Shown: positions 1-16,048 of the stretch, one piece after another
Layout of the letters: every line of letters begins with the position of its first letter
How positions within the stretch are numbered: the first letter of the stretch is position 1
From: Candidatus Thorarchaeota archaeon
Lineage (GTDB): Archaea > Asgardarchaeota > Thorarchaeia > Thorarchaeales > Thorarchaeaceae
Length of the DNA: 23,955 bases
Assembly (NCBI GenBank): GCA_048882385.1
Contig: JBHLRQ010000045.1
Span: forward strand, 1-23,955
Direction of reading: 5' to 3'
Position numbers and translations under genes: made by a program
The notes under the pieces: generated by a model
The model's database searches: none
What the model saw: the letters and a program-made list of their open reading frames with translations, nothing else
Told to the model about the DNA's origin: nothing

Positions 1-1044
1 CTCGAAACGGAAACACTCTGGTCTTTTCTAGACAAAGAAGACGCTAGAAGAATAGCTGAAAAAGTCCCTAGAAAAATGGTCATTGCAGCTTGTGGCGGAG
101 TCAGTGATGGTTTCCAGCAAGCTGAGAAAGAATTCAAAGTGACGTACCAAGTCTTAGAAACATTATTGGACTATGGAATGCCAGTCTTTATCCTCACCAA
201 ATCAAGTCTTGTTCTTGAATACTTGGACCTTCTAAAGGAAATCCACAATCAAGCATTTGCAAGTATTGCATTCACAATTACATGTGCAGATGATGATGTG
301 CAGAGAGTGTTTGAGCCAAATGCAGCAACGACATCAGAGAGATTTGCCGCGCTCAAAAAGATCAGGCGAGCAGGCCTCTATGGAGGTGTCATGGCTACTC
401 CAATCATACCAACAATTGGAGATAATTATGAGAACCTGACTCAACTTGTAAAGGAGACAAAGAATGCTAATGGCGAATTCATTCAATTTGGTGGAATGAC
501 TTTGAAACCAGGTAGGCAGAAAGATTATTTCATGCGTGTAATCAAGAGAAAATATTCAACCAACTATAATGCAATTGAAAGGATTTACGAAAACAACAAC
601 ACTTACGGCCAACCTATTTGGAAGCGTCTTCCTGTTAATGTAATGACCATCGGACACCAAATATGCAAAGAGCATGGACTTAGAGACCGGACAGTTCGAC
701 ATAAAATACCTCATGAGCATGAGTCAAACAATCTCGTTTTGGGAGTCTTACTTGATATCGTCTTTCGGATGAGTATGCATCTCGGAATGCCAAGAAATGC
801 TGTAAAACCTTACTGGGAACTTGCTGCAAGAATCGAACGCGGCGTGAACGAGCTTGGTGAACTCAAAAATGCATGTGAGCTGAAACAGCACCTAATGATA
901 GATGATTCGATGACAAAAACAGTTGAGGAGATTCTGAAGTCAGGAACCTGCCAAGTATTGAAGAATCTAGAAGCAAGAATTGGTAGAATGGCTGAAACAG
1001 AACTTGGTGAAGAGGTCCGTGTGTCACCAGATGAATATTCATAG
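1..1044 (+). CDS. Radical SAM protein, SplB/spore-photoproduct-lyase-like (COG1533-type), 5'-truncated; C-terminal helix-hairpin-helix-like extension
   Basis: Frame is open from position 1 (LETETLWSFLDKEDARRIAEKVPRK-MVIA...), so the true start lies upstream of the window. Motifs GGVSDGFQQAE, ILTKS and FEPNAATTSERF match SplB-like radical SAM proteins. The CxxxCxxC motif is not visible and is presumably upstream. Stop TAG 1042-1044. Confidence 0.75.
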   Translation, partial: LETETLWSFLDKEDARRIAEKVPRKMVIAACGGVSDGFQQAEKEFKVTYQVLETLLDYGMPVFILTKSSLVLEYLDLLKEIHNQAFASIAFTITCADDDVQRVFEPNAATTSERFAALKKIRRAGLYGGVMATPIIPTIGDNYENLTQLVKETKNANGEFIQFGGMTLKPGRQKDYFMRVIKRKYSTNYNAIERIYENNNTYGQPIWKRLPVNVMTIGHQICKEHGLRDRTVRHKIPHEHESNNLVLGVLLDIVFRMSMHLGMPRNAVKPYWELAARIERGVNELGELKNACELKQHLMIDDSMTKTVEEILKSGTCQVLKNLEARIGRMAETELGEEVRVSPDEYS

Positions 1045-4564: not shown

Positions 4565-6205
4565 TCAATCCTTTAGTAATTTGGGTATATATAACCAAAC
4601 AATCAGTACTGATACAAAGACCAGAACGCCTTGACTAACTAGACTGATAATTTGGGAACCTGCTATGAGCATCGTGATGCCATATGCCAGTAGAGGTACT
4701 ATTCCTGTTAATGCACCAACAGCAGCAGCGAAAAAGCCCATTGCTTGATCAGATGTCACATTGACTGCTACAGCTCTGCCGCCACCGCGTAGCCTAAACA
4801 CCGCTCCTCCAACAGCCATGCCAACAACATATCCGCAGGGTATCTGAATAAGTGGGATAAGTAGGAGAAGAGGTGTAATTGGGTTGTTAAGTAGAATCAT
4901 GATATCTATGGCAACCATACTCAAGATATATGGAACAAGGACAATTGATGTCTTACTCTTCAGAACCATTCGTGAACTAACCGGTAGACCTTCCTGAACT
5001 GAAGCACCTTGAGTATCAAACATCAGGATAGAAACAAGAGAGATTCCACCGAATAGATTTCCATATTCAACTGCTGTCAAAATAGCCATACTCCTTAGCA
5101 ATCCTAAATCATCCTTCCAATATTGTATCATTGGGAAAAGCATGACAACCAAGAATATCGGTATGGCAAATACAAAAGCTGAACCAATGTTTCTTGTCGC
5201 TAGTCTAAGATCTTTCCTAATCATTGCTTTAATTGGACTAGTTGTGTCAATACTGACTTCTCTTAGAACACTAGTCTGCGTTGAAATGACTCCGCCAGTA
5301 GTAACTAATCTCAGTGTTGTACCACTTCGACGATAGAGAATTACTGCAACAAGGGTGTAAAAACAGGCTCCTCCTACCGAAGCCAAGATTGTACTTGTCG
5401 GCATGGAAAAAGCTACCGATGCGGCAAGAAAGCCATATGAAAATGGAAAAATTAGTGCAAGACTAGTGAATGCAGTTTCTCCCCAAACACTCGAGAGTTG
5501 AATAATGAACCTCATCATATCTGGGAGATAACTACTAAGACCATATACACTGACCATGCCAATGACAATTCCAAATGAAGCCGCTATTCTAACAAAAGCT
5601 GAACCTCTAGATTCATCAGATGAATGAGATTTCCTATGAAACCATTTTGCCATTGCTATAAGAGCACCGATTGATATGGAGATCGTACTTGCACATGCAA
5701 TTAAACCAATGGCCGCCACCAAAGGGCCAAACACAAGTAAGCATCCAATGGGGAATATAGTGACAGAGAGTAAAACAGGTGCTAAGAATACTCTGGCAAA
5801 TGTCATAAACGAGAGATGTTCTAATTCCGCTTTTGTGAATGGGAGCATAGATGGTAATTTCATAGCTCCTGACGAGATTAGTCCAGTTGTTGTTGTTAGA
5901 TTTAGGAAAAAAACAACGACAAAGCTTAGTGCTAGATATATTGTGAAACCTACCGCTAGGCGTGCATCGGGGCTACCGATTGATACATCAAAAGCAGATG
6001 CTGCCAATGCGATGATTGCTATCATTCCTAGAATGATTGTAGTCATGAAATAACTAATACGACTGGATGATTTGATAGACCTAGCTATTCGCTCGGGATT
6101 CTCTTTTACACGAGCTAGGTTAGATGGATTCATTTCAAGGAACGCTTGGAATCGTGACTCCGTTGCAATAACTCCAGCTAGTTTCCAGCTCTCTGAGATT
6201 TTCAT
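4565..6205 (-). CDS. ABC-2-type exporter permease (polytopic membrane protein)
   Basis: 546 aa with many TM helices in two halves and KDLRLATRN at the start of the second half. Start overlaps the ATPase stop (ATGA at 6202-6205). Confidence 0.8.
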   Translation of the reverse strand: MKISESWKLAGVIATESRFQAFLEMNPSNLARVKENPERIARSIKSSSRISYFMTTIILGMIAIIALAASAFDVSIGSPDARLAVGFTIYLALSFVVVFFLNLTTTTGLISSGAMKLPSMLPFTKAELEHLSFMTFARVFLAPVLLSVTIFPIGCLLVFGPLVAAIGLIACASTISISIGALIAMAKWFHRKSHSSDESRGSAFVRIAASFGIVIGMVSVYGLSSYLPDMMRFIIQLSSVWGETAFTSLALIFPFSYGFLAASVAFSMPTSTILASVGGACFYTLVAVILYRRSGTTLRLVTTGGVISTQTSVLREVSIDTTSPIKAMIRKDLRLATRNIGSAFVFAIPIFLVVMLFPMIQYWKDDLGLLRSMAILTAVEYGNLFGGISLVSILMFDTQGASVQEGLPVSSRMVLKSKTSIVLVPYILSMVAIDIMILLNNPITPLLLLIPLIQIPCGYVVGMAVGGAVFRLRGGGRAVAVNVTSDQAMGFFAAAVGALTGIVPLLAYGITMLIAGSQIISLVSQGVLVFVSVLIVWLYIPKLLKD

Positions 6206-7078: not shown

Positions 7079-7531
7079 TCATGAAACCTCCAGATCTTCA
7101 GTCTGAACGCCACTGTTTCTAAGACTTACTTTTCTCTTCACAAATGTCCAGTAAGTGTAGAAAAGAGCCCATCCAACAGTTGGAATTGCTACAAAGATAT
7201 AGAACTCAAAAGCTGCGAAAAAGAAATAGATGTTGAAGAAGATCATCATTAGCACATTCATTATCCACGACCTCTTCTGCCACCCATAGCTAGATACAAT
7301 ATGTACTGCTCTTAGCGCTGCATATCCTCTACTGGTGAGTGTATACAATCCATCACTGTCAGTTGTTATGACAGATTCCATCTTCTTCAAATGGAAATCC
7401 AAGAGCCCTCCACTCTTAATCTTGAGTGTTCTCTTAAGGTCTGCAAACCGTCTAGGCTTTTTTGAGAGTTCTTTTAGAATCGCAATTCTCATTGGATGAG
7501 AAATCGCTTCAAACACTTCATCCGAGGTCAT
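7079..7531 (-). CDS. ArsR-like winged-helix transcriptional regulator with two C-terminal TM helices
   Basis: FEAISHPMRIAILKEL...FADLKRTL...LDFHLKKM...YTLTSRG is an ArsR-type wHTH. Hydrophobic segments MNVLMMIFFNIYFFFAAF and FYIFVAIPTVGWALFYTYWTFV are followed by KRK. Confidence 0.85.
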   Translation of the reverse strand: MTSDEVFEAISHPMRIAILKELSKKPRRFADLKRTLKIKSGGLLDFHLKKMESVITTDSDGLYTLTSRGYAALRAVHIVSSYGWQKRSWIMNVLMMIFFNIYFFFAAFEFYIFVAIPTVGWALFYTYWTFVKRKVSLRNSGVQTEDLEVS

Positions 7532-7579: not shown

Positions 7580-7595
7580 TTGACCAGTCGGTCAA
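7580..7595. promoter_or_regulatory. Palindromic operator-like site TTGACC-N4-GGTCAA
   Basis: TTGACCAGTCGGTCAA in the divergent intergenic region. A further TTGACC half-site lies at 7602-7607. Confidence 0.55.
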
Positions 7596-7745
7596 TGACT
7601 CTTGACCTTAGTATCTATCTAGCGATTCTAAAAGAATAACATTTTCTTCAAAGTCATTATGAGTAGCAATCTCGTTTTTGGGTGTTTGAGATATTCCTAC
7701 TGAGACCAAAGGATGTATATTCATTCAGACAATGTGTCGCACTAC

Positions 7746-7764
7746 TTTCTCATATCGTGAGAAA
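7746..7764. promoter_or_regulatory. Inverted repeat TTTCTCA-N5-TGAGAAA upstream of uvrA (operator or hairpin)
   Basis: Perfect 7-bp arms at 7746-7752 and 7758-7764. Confidence 0.4.
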
Positions 7765-7774
7765 CCTCAAGCTG

Positions 7775-7831
7775 ACATCAGGCCATTGTGCCCCTTCATG
7801 TTGGAACGGAGGCAAGCGGTTGAACTGATGT
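7775..7831 (+). other. Long imperfect RNA stem-loop immediately before the uvrA Shine-Dalgarno sequence
   Basis: ACATCAG (7775-7781) pairs with CTGATGT (7825-7831). Inner pairings are GCC/GGT, TGCC/GGCA, CC/GG and TTC/GAA. SD GGGAGG at 7833-7838. Confidence 0.4.
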
Positions 7832-7847
7832 AGGGAGGCATGAATGC

Positions 7848-10682
7848 ATGAGAGAACACATTAGTGTAAAGGGAGCTAGGACTAACAATCTTAGAAATAT
7901 CGATGTGGATATTCCGCGAGACCAGCTCACCGTGATTACAGGAGTGTCGGGATCCGGAAAGACTTCGCTAGCTTTTGACGTTATTTTTGCAGAAGGTCAA
8001 CGTAAGTTTTTCGAATCTATGTCAGCAACGTCTCGATCTATGCTACCAATGCTAGAACGAGCTGATGTTGACTCCATACTTGGACTCTCCCCTGTTGTTG
8101 CTATTGAGCAACGTACTGGAACACAGAATCCAAGATCTACAGTCGGGAGCATGACTGATATCTCCAGCTACATGAGAATCCTCTTCTCAGTGCTGGGTCA
8201 GGCACATTGTCCCTACTGCAACAAGAAGGTCCACACACGTAACGCAAACCAAATTGTTGATCACCTCATGACACTTCCCGAAGGGACACGTGTCGAGATT
8301 CTTGCACCCGTGAACAAGATCTATGATGAGGACTATCCCTACATGTTCGACGATATACGAACAAAGGGATACAAGAGAATCAAGATTGATGGAGAACCGT
8401 TCACAATCAGCGATAAGATAGACCTCGATGAAGCGAAAGACTATCGAATCGAAGTCGTTGTTGACCGTATCATCATCAAGAAGGATCTCTATCATCAGTT
8501 TGCAATATCAATTGAGAATGCAAAAGAAGTAGGTAGTGGGTTCATTAGATTCGAATTCTCAGATGAGAAGATTCCTGAGGATATCTTAGGTAAGTTCTAT
8601 GAGAACTTTGGATGTAAAGACCACCATATTGTGATGCACACCCTGCTACCAGGAGCCTTCTCTGCAAACCTGCCTGACAACGCATGTCCTACATGTCTGG
8701 GTATGGGTATGTTAATGAAGGCAGACGCACGGCTTGTAGTCGTCGACCCAAGAAAGGGTATGAACGATGGTGCACTGAAGTGGTGGGCTAAGTACTGGGC
8801 ATATAGCATAAGTCAGCACCTAGGGTTCGAATTGAAGACTCCATGGCAGGACTTGTCAAAGGATATCCAGGACCAGATCCTATTTGGCATAAGAAAGGAG
8901 TTCATCCTTCAAGAACCGCCAGACTGGCCAAACAAGTATCGTCATCGCAATGTCGGACAGAAGGTCCGATTTCTGGGCATCTGTAAATATATTGACAGAC
9001 ACTATAGGAATGACAGAAAGAAGGGAGAGCGATACGAGTGGTATCGAAAACTGATGACTGAACATACATGTCCTGATTGTCAGGGAAAGAAGCTCATTCC
9101 CCAGCGCTTGCTTGTCACAGTGGACGGTAGGAATATCGATGAGCTAGGTGAATACTTCATCAACCATCTACTCGAGTATGTGGACTCCATCAAGATTCCC
9201 AAAGGCAAAGAGAAGGCAGGAAACCAGGTCATCTCAGAGCTTAGGAAACGAATCCAGCTCCTGGATGACATCGGTCTTTACTACCTAAGGCTGAATCGTC
9301 GTGCCAGAACTTTGAGTGCTGGAGAAGCTCAGAGAATCAAGCTATCAACACAATTGGGCTCAGAACTCATGGGGATGTTGTATGTGCTCGATGAACCATC
9401 GATTGGGCTTCATATACGTGATAGCAACAGAATCATTGACATCCTCAAACGACTGCGAGATACAGGAAATACCGTTATTGTCATCGAACATGACTTGGAT
9501 ACTATTAAACAGGCAGACAATATCATTGAGATAGGACCAGGACCGGGTGTACATGGCGGCAAGATCATGGCGCAGGGAGTGTACGATGATGTCCTTGAGA
9601 ATCCGAAGTTCCTCACAGGTCACTACCTAACAGGGAAGAAGCAGATTCCATATCTTGGGAAAGCCCGAAAGCCCAATGGTAAATTCTTGAAGGTAATAGG
9701 TGCGAAGGAGAATAATCTGAAGAATCTGTCAGTTGAGTTCCCTCTCGGAGTTTTCATCTGCATTACAGGAGTTTCTGGGAGCGGGAAAAGCACACTGATT
9801 GAGGATGTCCTGGGAAAGAAGCTTATCCATGACATGAGAGACCTTCGAGTCATTCACGGCAAACTGGACAAGATAGAAGGTATGGAGAATGTAGTGGATG
9901 TACGGATTGTTGACCAGTCACCCATTGGAAGACATTCCAGGAGTATACCTGCAACCTATGTTGGATTCTTCGATAAGATACGACGAGTTTTCGCTGACAC
10001 TGAGATGGCAAATGAACGTGGCTACAAGATTGGAAGATTCAGTTACAACTCAACTGAAGGACGCTGTGCAGAGTGTAACGGAGAAGGTCTCGTTCGCATC
10101 GAGCTGCAGTACATGCCGGATATTCAGACCATCTGTCCTATCTGTAAAGGAGCTCGCTTCTCTGAAGAAGTCCTCGAGATTAAGTACAAGGGTAAGAATA
10201 TCGGTGACGTTCTGAACATGACTATCGAAGAGGCTAACAAGTTCTTCAAAGATACTCGACTCATCTACCACAAGACCAAGACCATGATGGAACTCGGTCT
10301 AGGATATCTCAAACTAGGACAGCCAGCACCAACATTGAGCGGCGGAGAATCGCAACGTATCAAGCTTGCAAAGGAACTTGGAAAACTCAAGAAACTGAAA
10401 GACAACCTCTACATTATGGATGAACCAAGTGTGGGCTTGCATATGGAAGATATCCAGATGCTTCTGAAGACTATCAACAAGCTTGTGGATGCAGGAAACA
10501 CTGTCATCGTAATCGAGCACCATCTAGACATCATTAAGTCAGCGGATTGGGTGATTGACTTGGGTCCAGAAGGTGGAGCTGAAGGCGGTGAGGTCATTGC
10601 TGAAGGAACTGTCGAAGACATCATCAAGTGTGAGAAGTCATACACTGGTCAGTTCCTCCAGAATGTTGTGGAGACCTCCTAG
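7848..10682 (+). CDS. uvrA: UvrA-family ABC ATPase (excinuclease subunit A-like, divergent)
   Basis: 944 aa. Two Walker A motifs ([18 protein letters not shown]), signatures [11 protein letters not shown] and [11 protein letters not shown], Walker [12 protein letters not shown] and [11 protein letters not shown]. Zn ligands CPYC/CKDH, CPTC/CPDC and CAEC/CPIC. SD GGGAGG 9 nt upstream. Confidence 0.95.
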
Positions 10683-10702
10683 GCCAACAGGAGCTGTTGT
10701 AC

Positions 10703-12598
10703 ATGGAAGATCCACAAGTTAGAAAGATGTTTGATGAAGCACTTAGTCGCTTCATCGAACAAGCAAAGGAGGATAGTAGGGTCCTCGCTATCATCATCTA
10801 TGGTAGTATGGCATATGATGAGGTCACCGAACGATCGAACATCAATGCCTATGTCATTGTCGACGAGGGACAACATCGGACAGCAAGACTCGTAGAGTAT
10901 GGTGTTCCAATAGATGTTGGGATCTATAACAAGAATGAGTTCATGAGAAGAATTCAGCATACGAGAGGAAGAGGAATATGGCAGGTCCTCACCTATAGCA
11001 AGCTGGTCTTCTCCAGAGATTGTTCATTCACAGACTGGTATAAGAACCGGAGTAAGAATGTCGGAGTGAGGGACAGAGGGTATCTTCAGATGTTGTACTT
11101 TATGGCTGTTAAATTCGACCTGCAGAAAGCTGAGAAGTATCTCTATATCAAAAACGACCTTGCTCATAGCTTTCACTTCTTCCTTCATGGACTCAGTGAA
11201 CTGGGGTATCTACTCTGTTATCTCAATGATGTCTGGCCACCCCGAGAAGTAATTCTGAAGGGGAGAGAGTTTCTCCCAGACCTGTTCCCGAAGCTCTTTG
11301 ACGACCTCATTGACACCGAGGTGACAAAGGAGTCTCTAGACAAAGCCATTAGAACAGCCTACGAATACATGGACTCCATAGACCTAGAGGTTCACAAACC
11401 AGTCCTTGATTTCATCTCAGATGAGGGAGGAACTGCATCACAGACAGATATCATGACGAGATTCGGTCTCAAAGGAATGGTCATCTTCGAGGCAGAACAT
11501 CTTCATCGAAGACGAATTCTACGACGCACAGTCACCCCAGTAAAGCTCACGAAAAAAGGTGTTGTAGAATACAACGAACCACTTTATCACTTTAGTTGGA
11601 ACTCATTCAATCCAGATGCTGTTAAACCAACGCGAGTTGGACCTGCTGATGTTGAGAGAGAACGTGTTCATGCAGACTATCAGAGCGCATTAGATGAACT
11701 TACTGAGAAATGTGAGAGGGACGAATATGTCCTCAACTTCATGGTATCCGGTAGCCTCTCCTATGACACAGTATGGGAAAAATCCGATATCGATTTCATG
11801 ATAGTCGTTAGAGACGAACCGTATGGAAGACGTCGTGGTTTTGTTGAGAAAGATGTCTTCATGGAAGGGGAGGTTGTGACTCGTGATTATTTCAGAAGAG
11901 GAACTAATAGGGTAAAAGACGGAAGTATCTTCCACTCGTACTTTTCAAAGAGTAAACTGCTTGTGTCTAAAGATGATTCGATCATGGACTATTATGAAGA
12001 TGTGAATAACATGGGTTCTCGAGATGTGGAAGACCTTCTGTTACTGAACTACATCTTCTGTAAGGATCTCATAAACAAGGCACACAAGGCACTCTATGTA
12101 AAGGATAATCCTCACTTTGCATTGAACTTCATAATGTCTGGGATTCGGAGAATGGCTAATATCGAAGTGCTCCTCAATAGAGGGATTCCACTACGAGAGT
12201 CTACAGTACAAGCACTAGAGTACAATCCCGAGTTCTTCAAGACCATATTCCTAGATATGGTTCATTCGCCTGAGAAGACCTGTGAGGTCGTTAGCGATGT
12301 TTTAGAGAAGATGGAGAACTACTTGGATGAACACTTGAAGCAATTCATACAACCTGTTCTTCGCTTGCTCGAGAAGAAGGAAGAGATAACACATTATGAA
12401 CTAAAGGACCACTTTATTGACATCTGGCTACCAGTGGACATGAGAGAGTTCGTCGAAAAGGGATTCATTCGACAGACAAAAGCTCCCTTCAGGTTTACAA
12501 AGAAAAGCTCTGCTGAGATGATTCAACCTGCATACCAACTGGCATCATCAAGGTCAGAGCACGAGATTGCGATGGATGAGGAGTGGAAGTTAGTATAG
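10703..12598 (+). CDS. Tandem two-module Pol-beta-superfamily nucleotidyltransferase-like protein (N-module degenerate, C-module with intact GS...DxD)
   Basis: Internal duplication of about 300 aa: YGSMAYDEVTERSNINAYVIV versus SGSLSYDTVWEKSDIDFMIVV. AGGAG at 10689-10693 lies 9 nt before ATG 10703 (the ORF track starts at TTG 10697). 20 nt after the uvrA stop. Confidence 0.8.
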   Translation: MEDPQVRKMFDEALSRFIEQAKEDSRVLAIIIYGSMAYDEVTERSNINAYVIVDEGQHRTARLVEYGVPIDVGIYNKNEFMRRIQHTRGRGIWQVLTYSKLVFSRDCSFTDWYKNRSKNVGVRDRGYLQMLYFMAVKFDLQKAEKYLYIKNDLAHSFHFFLHGLSELGYLLCYLNDVWPPREVILKGREFLPDLFPKLFDDLIDTEVTKESLDKAIRTAYEYMDSIDLEVHKPVLDFISDEGGTASQTDIMTRFGLKGMVIFEAEHLHRRRILRRTVTPVKLTKKGVVEYNEPLYHFSWNSFNPDAVKPTRVGPADVERERVHADYQSALDELTEKCERDEYVLNFMVSGSLSYDTVWEKSDIDFMIVVRDEPYGRRRGFVEKDVFMEGEVVTRDYFRRGTNRVKDGSIFHSYFSKSKLLVSKDDSIMDYYEDVNNMGSRDVEDLLLLNYIFCKDLINKAHKALYVKDNPHFALNFIMSGIRRMANIEVLLNRGIPLRESTVQALEYNPEFFKTIFLDMVHSPEKTCEVVSDVLEKMENYLDEHLKQFIQPVLRLLEKKEEITHYELKDHFIDIWLPVDMREFVEKGFIRQTKAPFRFTKKSSAEMIQPAYQLASSRSEHEIAMDEEWKLV

Positions 12599-14980: not shown

Positions 14981-16048
14981 TTATCTACGTTTAATGACTA
15001 TTACTAAACCGATAACGAGAACTGCAGCTCCAATTGAAATTGGCACAAGATTATCCGCAAGAAATTCGGGAATTGGTAGTGGGTTTCCACCTACTAGAAG
15101 AAGGTTCTCAAAACCAATCTTGGGATCGTGTATAATCTCATTTCCCTGAGGATAGTTCAAGAATATCTCCTGCTCAGTTGCAGTGACTTCATGAATGCTT
15201 GAATTGACAGGATAGGTGGTTCCATCAATCTCAGCAAACTCCTTCCAAGAGAAGAATCCAGTAATATCTGTTAGCAAGACATCCATCTCAGCCTCACTGA
15301 CAGCTCTTCCCTCATCTTCATCCTCAGTTGAATCATCAAATGAGGTTTCCACTTCAGTACTGAGCTCGACTTTCAGAGCAAGCTGTGAGGAACCATCAGT
15401 GAAATTGAAATTCATGATCATGACATCAATCTTCACTTGAGTTGGAACGATAATCGAGCCATTGATTTCAGTGAAGTCTCCAACAGCATAGACCCTTGCA
15501 CCGAACACACCATCAGTGGTCAACACATCAATGATGTGAACTGGTCCATCAGCAGTGTTCTCAACAGTGTAAACAAGTGGTTCGAAGCTGACAAGTTCCA
15601 CTGTCTGAAGTTCAGTGTCAATTGAATCATCATAGATACCATTTCCATTGACATCAAGATACTCAACAAGTTCAACGAATTGAACCTCGAATTCTCGCTC
15701 AGTCTCATTAGTTGTGCTTTCAGTTTCAAACTCGACCTTAAACTCTGCACCATTGGGTCCAACCGCAACCTCAATTTTGAAGGAGTCTTCGGTTCCTCCA
15801 GACTCAAGTTCGGACTGTATTTCAACAAGCGAGGGTGATGTTACTACTGATACTTCTCGATCGTTGAGACCGTCATCCTCTGTTGTTGTTGAATCAGGGG
15901 TTTCAGTTTCGGTGGTTGTATTATCATCCTCTTCGGTCGTGGTATTATCATCAGTGGTCGTTGTCGCATTGACATTGACTGCTGTTGTTACCAGCATAAA
16001 GAGGAGCATTCCAAGAATGACTTTGTTAATCGTAGCGTGCTTCATCAT
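14981..16048 (-). CDS. Acidic secreted, C-terminally anchored surface glycoprotein
   Basis: N-terminal signal peptide (KVILGMLLFMLVTTAVNVNA), Thr/Asp/Glu-rich linker, many N-x-S/T sequons (NAT, NTT x2, NET, NGS, NFT, NSS), DVNGNGIYD motif, C-terminal TM helix ending in KRR. Confidence 0.8.
   Translation of the reverse strand: MMKHATINKVILGMLLFMLVTTAVNVNATTTTDDNTTTEEDDNTTTETETPDSTTTEDDGLNDREVSVVTSPSLVEIQSELESGGTEDSFKIEVAVGPNGAEFKVEFETESTTNETEREFEVQFVELVEYLDVNGNGIYDDSIDTELQTVELVSFEPLVYTVENTADGPVHIIDVLTTDGVFGARVYAVGDFTEINGSIIVPTQVKIDVMIMNFNFTDGSSQLALKVELSTEVETSFDDSTEDEDEGRAVSEAEMDVLLTDITGFFSWKEFAEIDGTTYPVNSSIHEVTATEQEIFLNYPQGNEIIHDPKIGFENLLLVGGNPLPIPEFLADNLVPISIGAAVLVIGLVIVIKRR
15908..15952. 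repeat. Two-copy 21-nt direct repeat (24-nt period) encoding DDNTTTE twice
   Basis: TTCGGTGGTTGTATTATCATC (15908-15928) and TTCGGTCGTGGTATTATCATC (15932-15952). Confidence 0.6.

Follow-up and report, generated by a model that had tools for sequence, protein, structure and literature searches.

The window analysed here is a stretch of 23,955 nucleotides (nt) from a Candidatus Thorarchaeota archaeon (assembly GCA_048882385.1, contig JBHLRQ010000045.1, positions 1 to 23,955 of the forward strand). It contains a gene for a 631-amino-acid (aa) protein made of two nucleotidyltransferase (NTase) modules in tandem, one of which lacks the catalytic acidic pair. This gene directly follows that of a UvrA paralog, which is itself preceded by a conserved leader. 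The features of the locus are the following.

7740..7860, + strand: conserved structured 5' leader, candidate cis-regulatory RNA, overlapping the Shine-Dalgarno GGAGG and the ATG of uvrA
7848..10682, + strand: UvrA paralog, the conserved partner gene, directly upstream of the tandem gene on the same strand with a 20-nt gap
10703..12598, + strand: gene of the tandem nucleotidyltransferase-like protein, 631 aa, stop codon included (translation, DNA, relatives)
10703..11053, + strand: module 1 NTase domain, residues 1-117 (PF18765 over residues 19-106; MntA 7bxo at Z 8.7 over model residues 11-134)
10838..10846, + strand: N-I-N (AAC ATC AAT) replacing D-x-D (DNA sequence)
11054..11386, + strand: module 1 HEPN-like helical domain, residues 118-228 (model helices H122-149, H153-174 and H209-230; 4ebj match)
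11126..11137, + strand: module 1 K142-A-E144-K145 motif, intact (K142, E144 and K145 each in 56/56 Asgard relatives)
11387..11602, + strand: module 1 winged-helix domain, residues 229-300 (separate model; winged-helix matches)
11603..11653, + strand: inter-module linker, residues 301-317 (model without secondary structure over 301-318)
11654..12004, + strand: module 2 NTase domain, residues 318-434, with G350-S351 and D362-I-D364 (PF01909 over residues 331-381)
11786..11794, + strand: D-I-D, predicted Mg2+-binding pair of the live site (translation; alignment of relatives)
12005..12343, + strand: module 2 HEPN-like helical domain, residues 435-547 (2hsb at Z 10.5 over model 440-550; 6un8_B at Z 13.9 over 320-565)
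12077..12088, + strand: module 2 K459-A-H461-K462, eroded copy of K-A-E-K (motif counts in 56 relatives)
12344..12553, + strand: module 2 winged-helix domain, residues 548-617 (3c18_A aligned over model 325-615; domain alignment)

The open frame spans 10697..12598 on the + strand. Its likely start is the ATG at 10703, because GGAG lies just upstream (10690-10693) and the database relatives, likewise 631 aa long, start at the same Met. When the halves (residues 1-311 and 312-631) are compared by BLASTP, they align end to end with 80/306 identical residues (101 bits, E 2e-29), a match far beyond chance. The first-pass annotation of this DNA had described two modules of ~300 aa aligned end to end and had quoted five pairs of shared motifs, and all five are present in this alignment. 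It had also placed an S-N-I-N in module 1 where module 2 reads S-D-I-D. The codons AAC (10838-10840) and AAT (10844-10846) are indeed found in the DNA, and the translation gives D362 and D364 at 11786-11794.

The Pfam family Polbeta (PF18765) matches both halves when each is scanned alone (E 2.1e-5 for module 1, 1.4e-4 for module 2). The bit scores of the separate modules, 25.0 and 22.4, are slightly below the cut-off of 26.9, which the whole protein passes with 44.2. For NTP_transf_2 (PF01909) the whole protein scores 32.9 bits against a cut-off of 21, with the best match in the second half, and module 2 alone reaches 21.3. Module 1 has the Pol-beta NTase fold without its catalytic signature. 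Its G34-S35 is retained and N46 and N48 stand in place of the metal-binding pair, so that [DE]x[DE] is found in module 2 (D362-I-D364) and is absent from module 1 (N46-I-N48).

We next consider how general this replacement is. A word-indexed search gave 115 relatives, of which 102 with a length of 600-670 aa were aligned and 13 shorter fragments or fusions were left out. The Asgard set consists of 56 full-length sequences with 49-100% identity; the named sources are Thorarchaeota or Asgard, with one labelled Zixibacteria. GS is kept in module 1 of all 56, and the pair that follows is NxN in 52, NxD in 2 and DxN in 2. Module 2 carries GS...DxD in 56/56. Module 1 is as constrained as module 2, since the mean pairwise identities are nearly equal (0.613 and 0.612). 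The N-x-N is conserved, not drift, and to judge from these alignments it looks selected, as the first-pass annotation had proposed; none of the 56 close homologs has DxD in module 1.

The opposite explanation, neutral decay of a redundant duplicate, is one that we consider very improbable, together with the defence reading discussed further below. Equal constraint on the two modules and 0/56 reversions to DxD speak against it, and on these grounds neutral decay of module 1 was rejected.

The AlphaFold2 model of the whole chain, built on a 45-sequence alignment, has a mean predicted local distance difference test (pLDDT) score of 90.3 and a predicted TM-score (pTM) of 0.88, which indicates a confident predicted arrangement of two modules. 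We compared this model with known structures using Foldseek and VIA-align, with the best 50 VIA matches considered. The main structural neighbours are the following.

3c18_A: Z 18.1, 279/290 residues, model 325-615
ANT(4') 6un8_B: Z 13.9, 236 residues aligned, root-mean-square deviation 3.6, model 320-565
ANT(4')-IIb 4ebj_A: Z 12.9, model 3-309
LinB: Z 11.3, model 324-582
HEPN protein 2hsb: Z 10.5, model 440-550
Hailong HalB: Z 10.3, model 26-362
MntA (7bxo): Z 8.7, model 11-134

The ANT(4') matches cover 229-238 aligned residues with Foldseek E-values of 6e-9 to 7e-7, and a further HEPN protein, 5yep_C, matches the helical domain at Z 9.1. At the C-terminal end of module 1, the last 72 residues were modelled separately (pLDDT 89.2), and in an unbiased search all of the best 50 VIA matches are winged-helix structures (Z 6.8-8.0), including MarR, ArsR, PadR, TFE, Z-alpha domains and residues 221-289 of 3c18. 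The winged helix of module 1 carries an Arg-rich HLHRRRILRR, or a close variant, in 12/12 of the Asgard module-1 rows shown. In the model, then, each module is a minimal Pol-beta NTase followed by a HEPN-like helical domain and a winged helix. The earlier expectation that both halves adopt a Pol-beta NTase fold is borne out by the structure model and by the Foldseek and VIA matches.

The closest relative by both fold and profile is 3c18, a “nucleotidyltransferase-like protein” of Exiguobacterium sibiricum from structural genomics (YgxA-like, PF22339) with the same three-domain unit. Unlike the tandem protein, it is a single module and lacks the second Asp and the K-A-E-K motif. It is matched by the family profile at E 3.7e-14 and, among the sequence-based searches, is reached by that profile only: a sequence search of the PDB with module 2 alone gave as best hit an unrelated protein at E 0.058. 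PF22339 is not listed for the tandem protein at E up to 1, and for the relatives P0063 and P0117 it scores 29.3 and 24.7 bits against a cut-off of 27.

Next come the aminoglycoside-type enzymes KNTase ANT(4')-Ia (1kny, 6un8) and ANT(4')-IIb (4ebj), which share the N-terminal minimal NTase followed by a helical bundle, the GS motif and the acidic pair for Mg2+. The tandem protein differs from them in its low identity (14-16%), in the extra C-terminal winged helix of each module, in having its units fused and one site disabled, and in being encoded next to a UvrA paralog and not in a resistance cassette. There is no sequence-level membership, with the NCBIfam ANT/Lnu models scoring 12-22 bits against cut-offs of 340-540; the best resistance match is Lnu(F), 21.9 bits against 450, and ANT(9) appears for the relative P0150 only, with 17.1 against 340. 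A likeness is also seen to the MNT-HEPN pairs (MntA/HepT type VII toxin-antitoxin), as the NTase resembles MntA and the helical domain resembles HEPN proteins. In the tandem protein these domains are fused in one chain and the genomic context is not that of a toxin-antitoxin pair; the HEPN nuclease motif Rx4-6H is absent from residues 118-228 and 435-547 of the translation.

OAS2, to which the first-pass annotation had likened the layout, gives a Foldseek E-value of 0.016, a probability of 0.14 and a TM-score of 0.14 (9h1z_A), and is absent among the best 50 VIA matches. On these models the nearest known architecture is KNTase, not OAS.

This matters for what is meant by a dead module. In PMC4631478, KNTase and LinB are described as homodimeric enzymes whose two active sites lie where the subunits meet. 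In KNTase, according to the same text, S39, S49, R42, D50 and E52 come from one subunit and E145 and K149 from the other, with a further cis contact from T187 in the helical region. The tandem protein apparently mimics such homodimeric composite sites within one chain. By the aligned ranges (model 320..565 against chain 6..253, an offset of ~313), KNTase 145-149 falls approximately on K459-A-H461-K462 of module 2, for which the equivalent in module 1 is K142-A-E144-K145.

The state of this helical motif differs sharply between the two modules. In single-module relatives it reads K (66/72), then A, E (38/72), K (70/72) and W (47/72). The Asgard module 1, with its dead NTase, has K, E and K in 56/56 each. 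In the live module 2 the E is present in only 2/56, followed by K in 49 and R in 7, and the aromatic residue (Trp/Tyr) is replaced by Ala in 56/56. What is dead would be one composite site and not one module, and module 1 most likely supplies half of the live site, because K-A-E-K is kept in 56/56 of module 1, Glu persists in 2/56 of module 2, and KNTase-type sites are composite. The dead Asgard site retains GS, S45, K459 and K462 and lacks the metal ligands and the Glu, a pattern that fits nucleotide binding without catalysis.

A second tandem clade, of 46 proteins of ~630 aa with ~30% identity, has corresponding loci titled Candidatus Poribacteria. Here it is module 1 that has GS...DxD (46/46), and module 2 has SN for GS (46/46) without DxD (25 NxN, 12 DxN, 9 other). 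The helical motif is KAEKW or KVEKW in the dead module 2 and of YAEKQ type in the live module 1, in 46/46 each. Furthermore, an exhaustive HMMER search gave 361 representatives at E up to 1e-3, among them seven further tandems with exactly one DxD each. This DxD lies in the C module of P0117 and P0153 and in the N module of P0118, P0119, P0120, P0122 and P0125. All tandems examined thus retain exactly one DxD. The direction of helical erosion is the same in P0119, P0125, P0120, P0122 and P0153, and both helical motifs are intact in the young tandems P0117 and P0118.

Single-module relatives of ~300-320 aa are numerous, and 64 of the 72 with a length of 285-335 aa carry GS...DxD; the single module is the common form and is predicted to be active. 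A complex prediction for two copies of one of them, P0129, scored 0.39, 0.41 and 0.37, where the mark is 0.42 and the controls gave 0.00, and is counted neither for nor against a dimer.

A tree of 120 modules, with branch support from the SH-like approximate likelihood ratio test (SH-aLRT), places the N and C modules of P0117 as nearest relatives (100), those of P0153 with the single-module P0243 (100) and those of P0118 with the single-module P0135 (99). The identity between N and C modules is 71% in P0117, 59% in P0153, 52% in P0118, 41-47% in Poribacteria and 23-26% in Asgard, and cross-lineage identities are at most 37%. Several separate duplications are indicated, because identities within these tandems exceed those across lineages, and as far as sequences can tell, three of them (P0117, P0153, P0118) are clearly separate from, and younger than, the Asgard one. 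A four-group tree favours separate Asgard and Poribacteria duplications as well (SH-aLRT 99-100).

P0117 is informative in another respect. Its N module reads ...WEKSNIN... and its C module ...WEKSDVD..., so that the same Asp-to-Asn pair is seen in two lineages. Since the recently duplicated modules, 71% identical, already contain N-I-N, the double change appears to be specific and to come early after duplication. A KNTase-type dimer seems to have been fused into one chain several times, with one shared site switched off each time, and in the older fusions erosion has also reached the partner motif of the other module. These tandems offer a natural experiment in how pseudo-dimers lose a site, and would correct the picture of a dead module beside a live one.

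We also observed that the single-module proteins P0185, P0190 and P0230 (genomes G201, G144 and G132) fall together with the dead N module of Asgard (SH-aLRT 96), and that their own second Asp is degenerate (DIQ, DLH and DLS). They could be dead partners that exist as separate proteins, in a split state from before the fusion.

The first-pass annotation had interpreted module 1 as a non-catalytic sensor module that regulates an active module 2, by analogy with OAS2/OAS3. Spelled out, module 1 would detect a ligand or nucleic acid and allosterically control a self-contained catalytic module 2. The likeness is real at the level of the architectural idea, tandem NTase-fold units with one retaining the catalytic acidic residues, and the part of the claim that stands is that one NTase motif is dead and one live. 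A sensor role would fit the conserved N-x-N, the equal constraint on module 1, the phosphate-binding GS and S45 kept in the dead site, the conserved Arg-rich winged helix that module 1 has of its own, and the case of P0117, where the D-to-N pair is almost the sole change in the motif region after a recent duplication. The picture of a separate sensor is not supported in this form, since the closest folds are 3c18 and ANT(4')/KNTase, with composite sites between subunits, and module 1 keeps the very K-A-E-K that a wholly dead module would be predicted to lose, with the erosion found in module 2. The tandem appears to belong to a different branch of the NTase superfamily, and OAS units are self-contained, whereas the tandem sites are probably shared between modules. 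Moreover, the dead NTase lies in the C module of other lineages, so no fixed order of sensor then enzyme exists. We therefore regard an OAS-like sensor as unlikely; the dead site may still have a regulatory role.

The partner gene encodes a full-length UvrA (NCBIfam PRK00349, 1151.2 bits against a cut-off of 1147) with the UvrB-interaction (UvrA_inter) and DNA-binding insertion (UvrA_DNA-bind) domains. It resembles class I UvrA and the known paralogs Deinococcus UvrA2, DrrC and Ecm16, from which it differs in forming its own clade apart from the canonical UvrAs of the same genomes. Resistance-type UvrA paralogs are described as lacking the UvrB-binding domain. The same genome has a uvrB-uvrA-uvrA-uvrC cluster with two different full-length UvrA genes (contig C37, 15560-25637) and a double-length UvrA frame of 1652 aa (contig C6, 42651-47519), all 43-45% identical to the partner. 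The partner is thus an extra paralog, because the genome carries these other UvrAs. The UvrB of the C37 cluster matches in two pieces, with model positions 218-334 absent between them.

To look at adjacency, 80 loci from reference genomes were scanned by tblastn with the partner UvrA. It lies directly upstream on the same strand in 13/13 Asgard tandem loci, and directly downstream of the NTase in 50/53 single-module bacterial loci. The three exceptions are short records (3.0-3.6 kb) that end at, or a few bases from, the end of the NTase match. The single-module loci come from Paenibacillus, Cohnella, Alicyclobacillus, a clostridial genus, Latescibacterota, Gemmatimonadota, Roseiflexaceae, Chthonomonadaceae and Armatimonas.

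In four of five bacterial genomes (G001, G002, G003 and G005) a higher-scoring canonical UvrA is encoded elsewhere, with 1333-1512 bits where the linked copy has 1139-1196; in the fifth, the Poribacteria genome G004, there is a sole UvrA. In the UvrA tree, 21 linked copies and this sole UvrA form one clade (SH-aLRT 100, stem 0.46), apart from the canonical proteins. Adjacency across loci and the separate clade bear out the link to UvrA suggested earlier. A clade-specific docking region was not found in the NTase-linked UvrAs, where only 20 scattered type-II positions and no cluster were seen. One of these 20 fixed differences is residue 259, Cys in the sampled canonical UvrAs and His in the linked clade, which may sit in a zinc module.

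Among Asgard archaea the NTase is patchy: of the 251 genomes sampled 25 have it, as do 5 of the 15 others in its own genus, and several genomes that are 90-99% complete are without it. In the family sample, a UvrA with >80% identity occurs in eight other genomes. The tandem NTase adjoins it in all seven that were searched for both (G092, G125, G145, G169, G190, G208 and G229), and the eighth, G261, is outside the NTase search sample. Genomes in both samples without the NTase have only canonical UvrA copies, at 42-46% identity. The pair is an accessory, horizontally spread two-gene module. In the retrieved loci it is seen in Asgard archaea, Paenibacillaceae and other Bacillota, Latescibacterota, Gemmatimonadota, Chloroflexota, Armatimonadota and Poribacteria, which draws attention to a conserved and uncharacterised partner of a distinct clade of UvrA paralogs. 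No paper on a UvrA NTase partner, on YgxA function or on the tandem was found in the literature covered, which leaves out subscription journals and supplements.

A link to DNA damage is suggested by the promoters. LexA-type boxes scoring at least 8 of 10 against a consensus are present in 8/25 Firmicute NTase-uvrA promoters; 300 shuffles gave 1.12 on average and 5 at most. The loci with these LexA (Cheo)-like boxes are L023, L027, L028, L031, L054, L059, L060 and L061, with the box upstream of position 6001, and several boxes sit between the -35 and -10 elements. Two of these genomes have the GAACAAAYATTC core in their canonical uvrB promoter too (L103 and L104), just past the -10 element. The strict form GAAC-N4-GTTC occurs in 0/42 bacterial upstream regions, the boxes having been found by a scored search that tolerates mismatches.

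Taken together, we regard it as probable that the protein is a fused KNTase/ANT(4')-like pseudo-homodimer with a single live composite site, working with the UvrA paralog in a function related to DNA damage. The live site would combine the NTase of module 2 (G350-S351, S361, D362 and D364) with the helical K142-A-E144-K145 of module 1, contributed in trans, an arrangement that we infer from motif states and folds. The other site would be dismantled on both sides, with N46/N48 in module 1 and a module 2 motif without Glu and aromatic residue, its K459-A-H461-K462 facing the dead N-I-N. Nucleotidyl transfer would then take place at a single asymmetric site, and the disabled one may be retained by selection as a structural or non-catalytic nucleotide-binding pocket.

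The two winged helices could position the enzyme on nucleic acid. We have moderate confidence in a single-site nucleotidyltransferase that acts with the UvrA paralog on a DNA-associated target. The duplication, the motif states, the folds, the gene linkage and the SOS boxes are what the sequences and models show; catalysis and substrate are inferred. In the preferred reading, the nucleotidylated target would be either the UvrA paralog itself or, on the DNA, a lesion, an end or a bound genotoxin. If the pair does act on damaged DNA or DNA-bound toxins, it adds a nucleotidyl-transfer step to UvrA-based damage handling.

Several observations weigh against this reading. The correspondence between K-A-E-K and KNTase E145-K149 is taken from alignment ranges and is approximate. 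Helical erosion is not purely in trans, as the Asgard module 1 has lost the consensus A, E, Q, A and N at alignment columns 265, 272, 291, 292 and 297 (G168, L171, K186, G187 and L191), and the dead Poribacteria module shows cis erosion of PxRE to PxRK. The live module varies at the third acidic position of the NTase fold. In the case of Poribacteria-type tandem loci, UvrA is adjacent in 1/14 only. By the approximately unbiased (AU) test, trees in which the Asgard and Poribacteria dead modules are joined are not rejected (p 0.283), nor are trees joining the N modules of the two groups (p 0.266), so that independence of these two duplications is not established. Lastly, single-module relatives are fused N-terminally to ECF sigma-70 regions 2 and 4 (P0115, P0140, P0142 and the L066 protein) or to an AraC helix-turn-helix (HTH) domain (P0147 and the L082 protein), and the fusion genes L066:5059-6897 and L082:5695-6996 lie directly upstream of the UvrA paralog. 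Such fusions are no less expected of a regulator than of an enzyme of repair.

These fusions, together with the winged helices, tie the family to DNA and transcription, and they introduce the main functional rival. The protein could serve chiefly to regulate the transcription or translation of the uvrA-paralog operon, with winged helices that bind an operator or the leader RNA and an NTase core that senses a ligand (a nucleoside triphosphate (NTP) or a small molecule), catalysis being secondary or absent. A winged helix ends each module, 3c18 as the closest solved relative itself lacks the second Asp, regulator genes typically adjoin their targets, and the Asgard operon has a conserved structured leader. 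On the other hand, the retention of GS and DxD in 56/56 live modules and in 64/72 single modules would be difficult to account for if there were neither catalysis nor Mg-NTP binding; a conserved operator did not turn up; and linkage to one UvrA clade across distant phyla, in both gene orders, is more typical of functional partners. We judge a mainly regulatory role to be quite improbable.

Some Paenibacillus loci (L018, L020, L021, L024, L027, L029, L043 and L068) have TGATAG-N16-GCATCTA ~20-60 nt upstream of the NTase start, which may be an ECF-sigma-type promoter or an operator. In some of these loci a AAAACAGGATTT block is found further upstream.

As for the Asgard leader, the alignment of nine Thorarchaeota loci upstream of uvrA reveals a near-invariant block of ~120 nt between a TATA-like element (~7714-7721) and the ATG. 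RNAalifold predicts a hairpin CUCAU/GUGAG, a helix of CCUC with the Shine-Dalgarno GGAGG, a helix CAUCAG/CUGAUG, and a GGCC/GGU helix closing a variable hairpin. A covariance model seeded with the nine sequences finds the leader in 14/14 Asgard loci searched, the five non-seed loci (L008-L011 and L013) being more divergent, mostly labelled Heimdallarchaeota and matched at E 1e-13 to 1e-9. The same model has matches in 0/11 bacterial and 0/3 canonical-UvrA loci. The leader is present once in its own genome and in 9 of 61 family genomes, always abutting the start of the uvrA paralog, with one weak match of 26.9 bits elsewhere.

In these 14 sequences 92.9% of the cells are paired, compared with 33-42% when partners are slid by 1-3 columns, in an alignment fitted to the model, which favours structure. 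Seven pairs have double changes and the inner helices covary; the covariation in this model-fitted alignment is 0.216 against 0.124 in shuffles, a value reached by 0/500 of them. Minimum-energy folds instead form a pairing between the 5' UUUCUCAU and the start-codon region AUGAGAGA (z-scores -1.76 and -3.05), which suggests alternative leader structures that hide the ribosome-binding site and the start codon. Rfam holds no family for this leader, the search having returned two chance matches at E ~4. It is a candidate new cis-regulatory RNA, and would rank among the few candidates of this kind in Asgard archaea.

A bolder extension of the pseudo-homodimer reading is that the dead N-I-N pocket binds a nucleotide or ligand without catalysis, which would turn the fused enzyme into an asymmetric switch, and that the NTase and the UvrA paralog constitute an undescribed, nucleotidylation-dependent accessory branch of damage handling, exchanged between bacteria and Asgard archaea and controlled by SOS in some Firmicutes and by a new riboswitch-like leader in Asgard. 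We put this forward tentatively, as a doubtful though conceivable possibility.

Finally, the pair could be an anti-phage defence system, which shares with neutral decay our lowest rating. Its accessory and patchy occurrence, the presence of Hailong HalB among the fold matches and a match of the UvrA to the PADLOC MADS model mad3 would be in line with this. The PADLOC matches are generic, covering a minimal NTase of ~100 aa (E 7e-8) and the ABC half of UvrA, and the SOS boxes speak for DNA damage. Around the pair, the other flanking genes vary from locus to locus, and none of them is a defence gene. A known defence system was rejected as a candidate, as PADLOC gives only generic minimal-NTase and ABC-ATPase similarity.

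Elsewhere in the window, the divergent intergenic region holds a perfect 6-4-6 palindrome, TTGACC AGTC GGTCAA, at 7580-7595. It adjoins the gene of a 150-aa HTH protein (DUF7347/HTH_20; 7082-7531, - strand), which heads a minus-strand cluster of an ABC ATPase, a membrane protein with 12 transmembrane segments, a histidine-kinase-like ATPase and an MFS transporter. A similar TTGACC...GTCAA is found upstream in locus L014. On the other side of the tandem gene, 14981-16048 (- strand) encodes a protein of 355 aa without a Pfam match. With its N-terminal signal-like segment, a low-complexity stretch rich in Thr, Asp and Glu and a hydrophobic anchor at the C terminus, it could be a surface protein.

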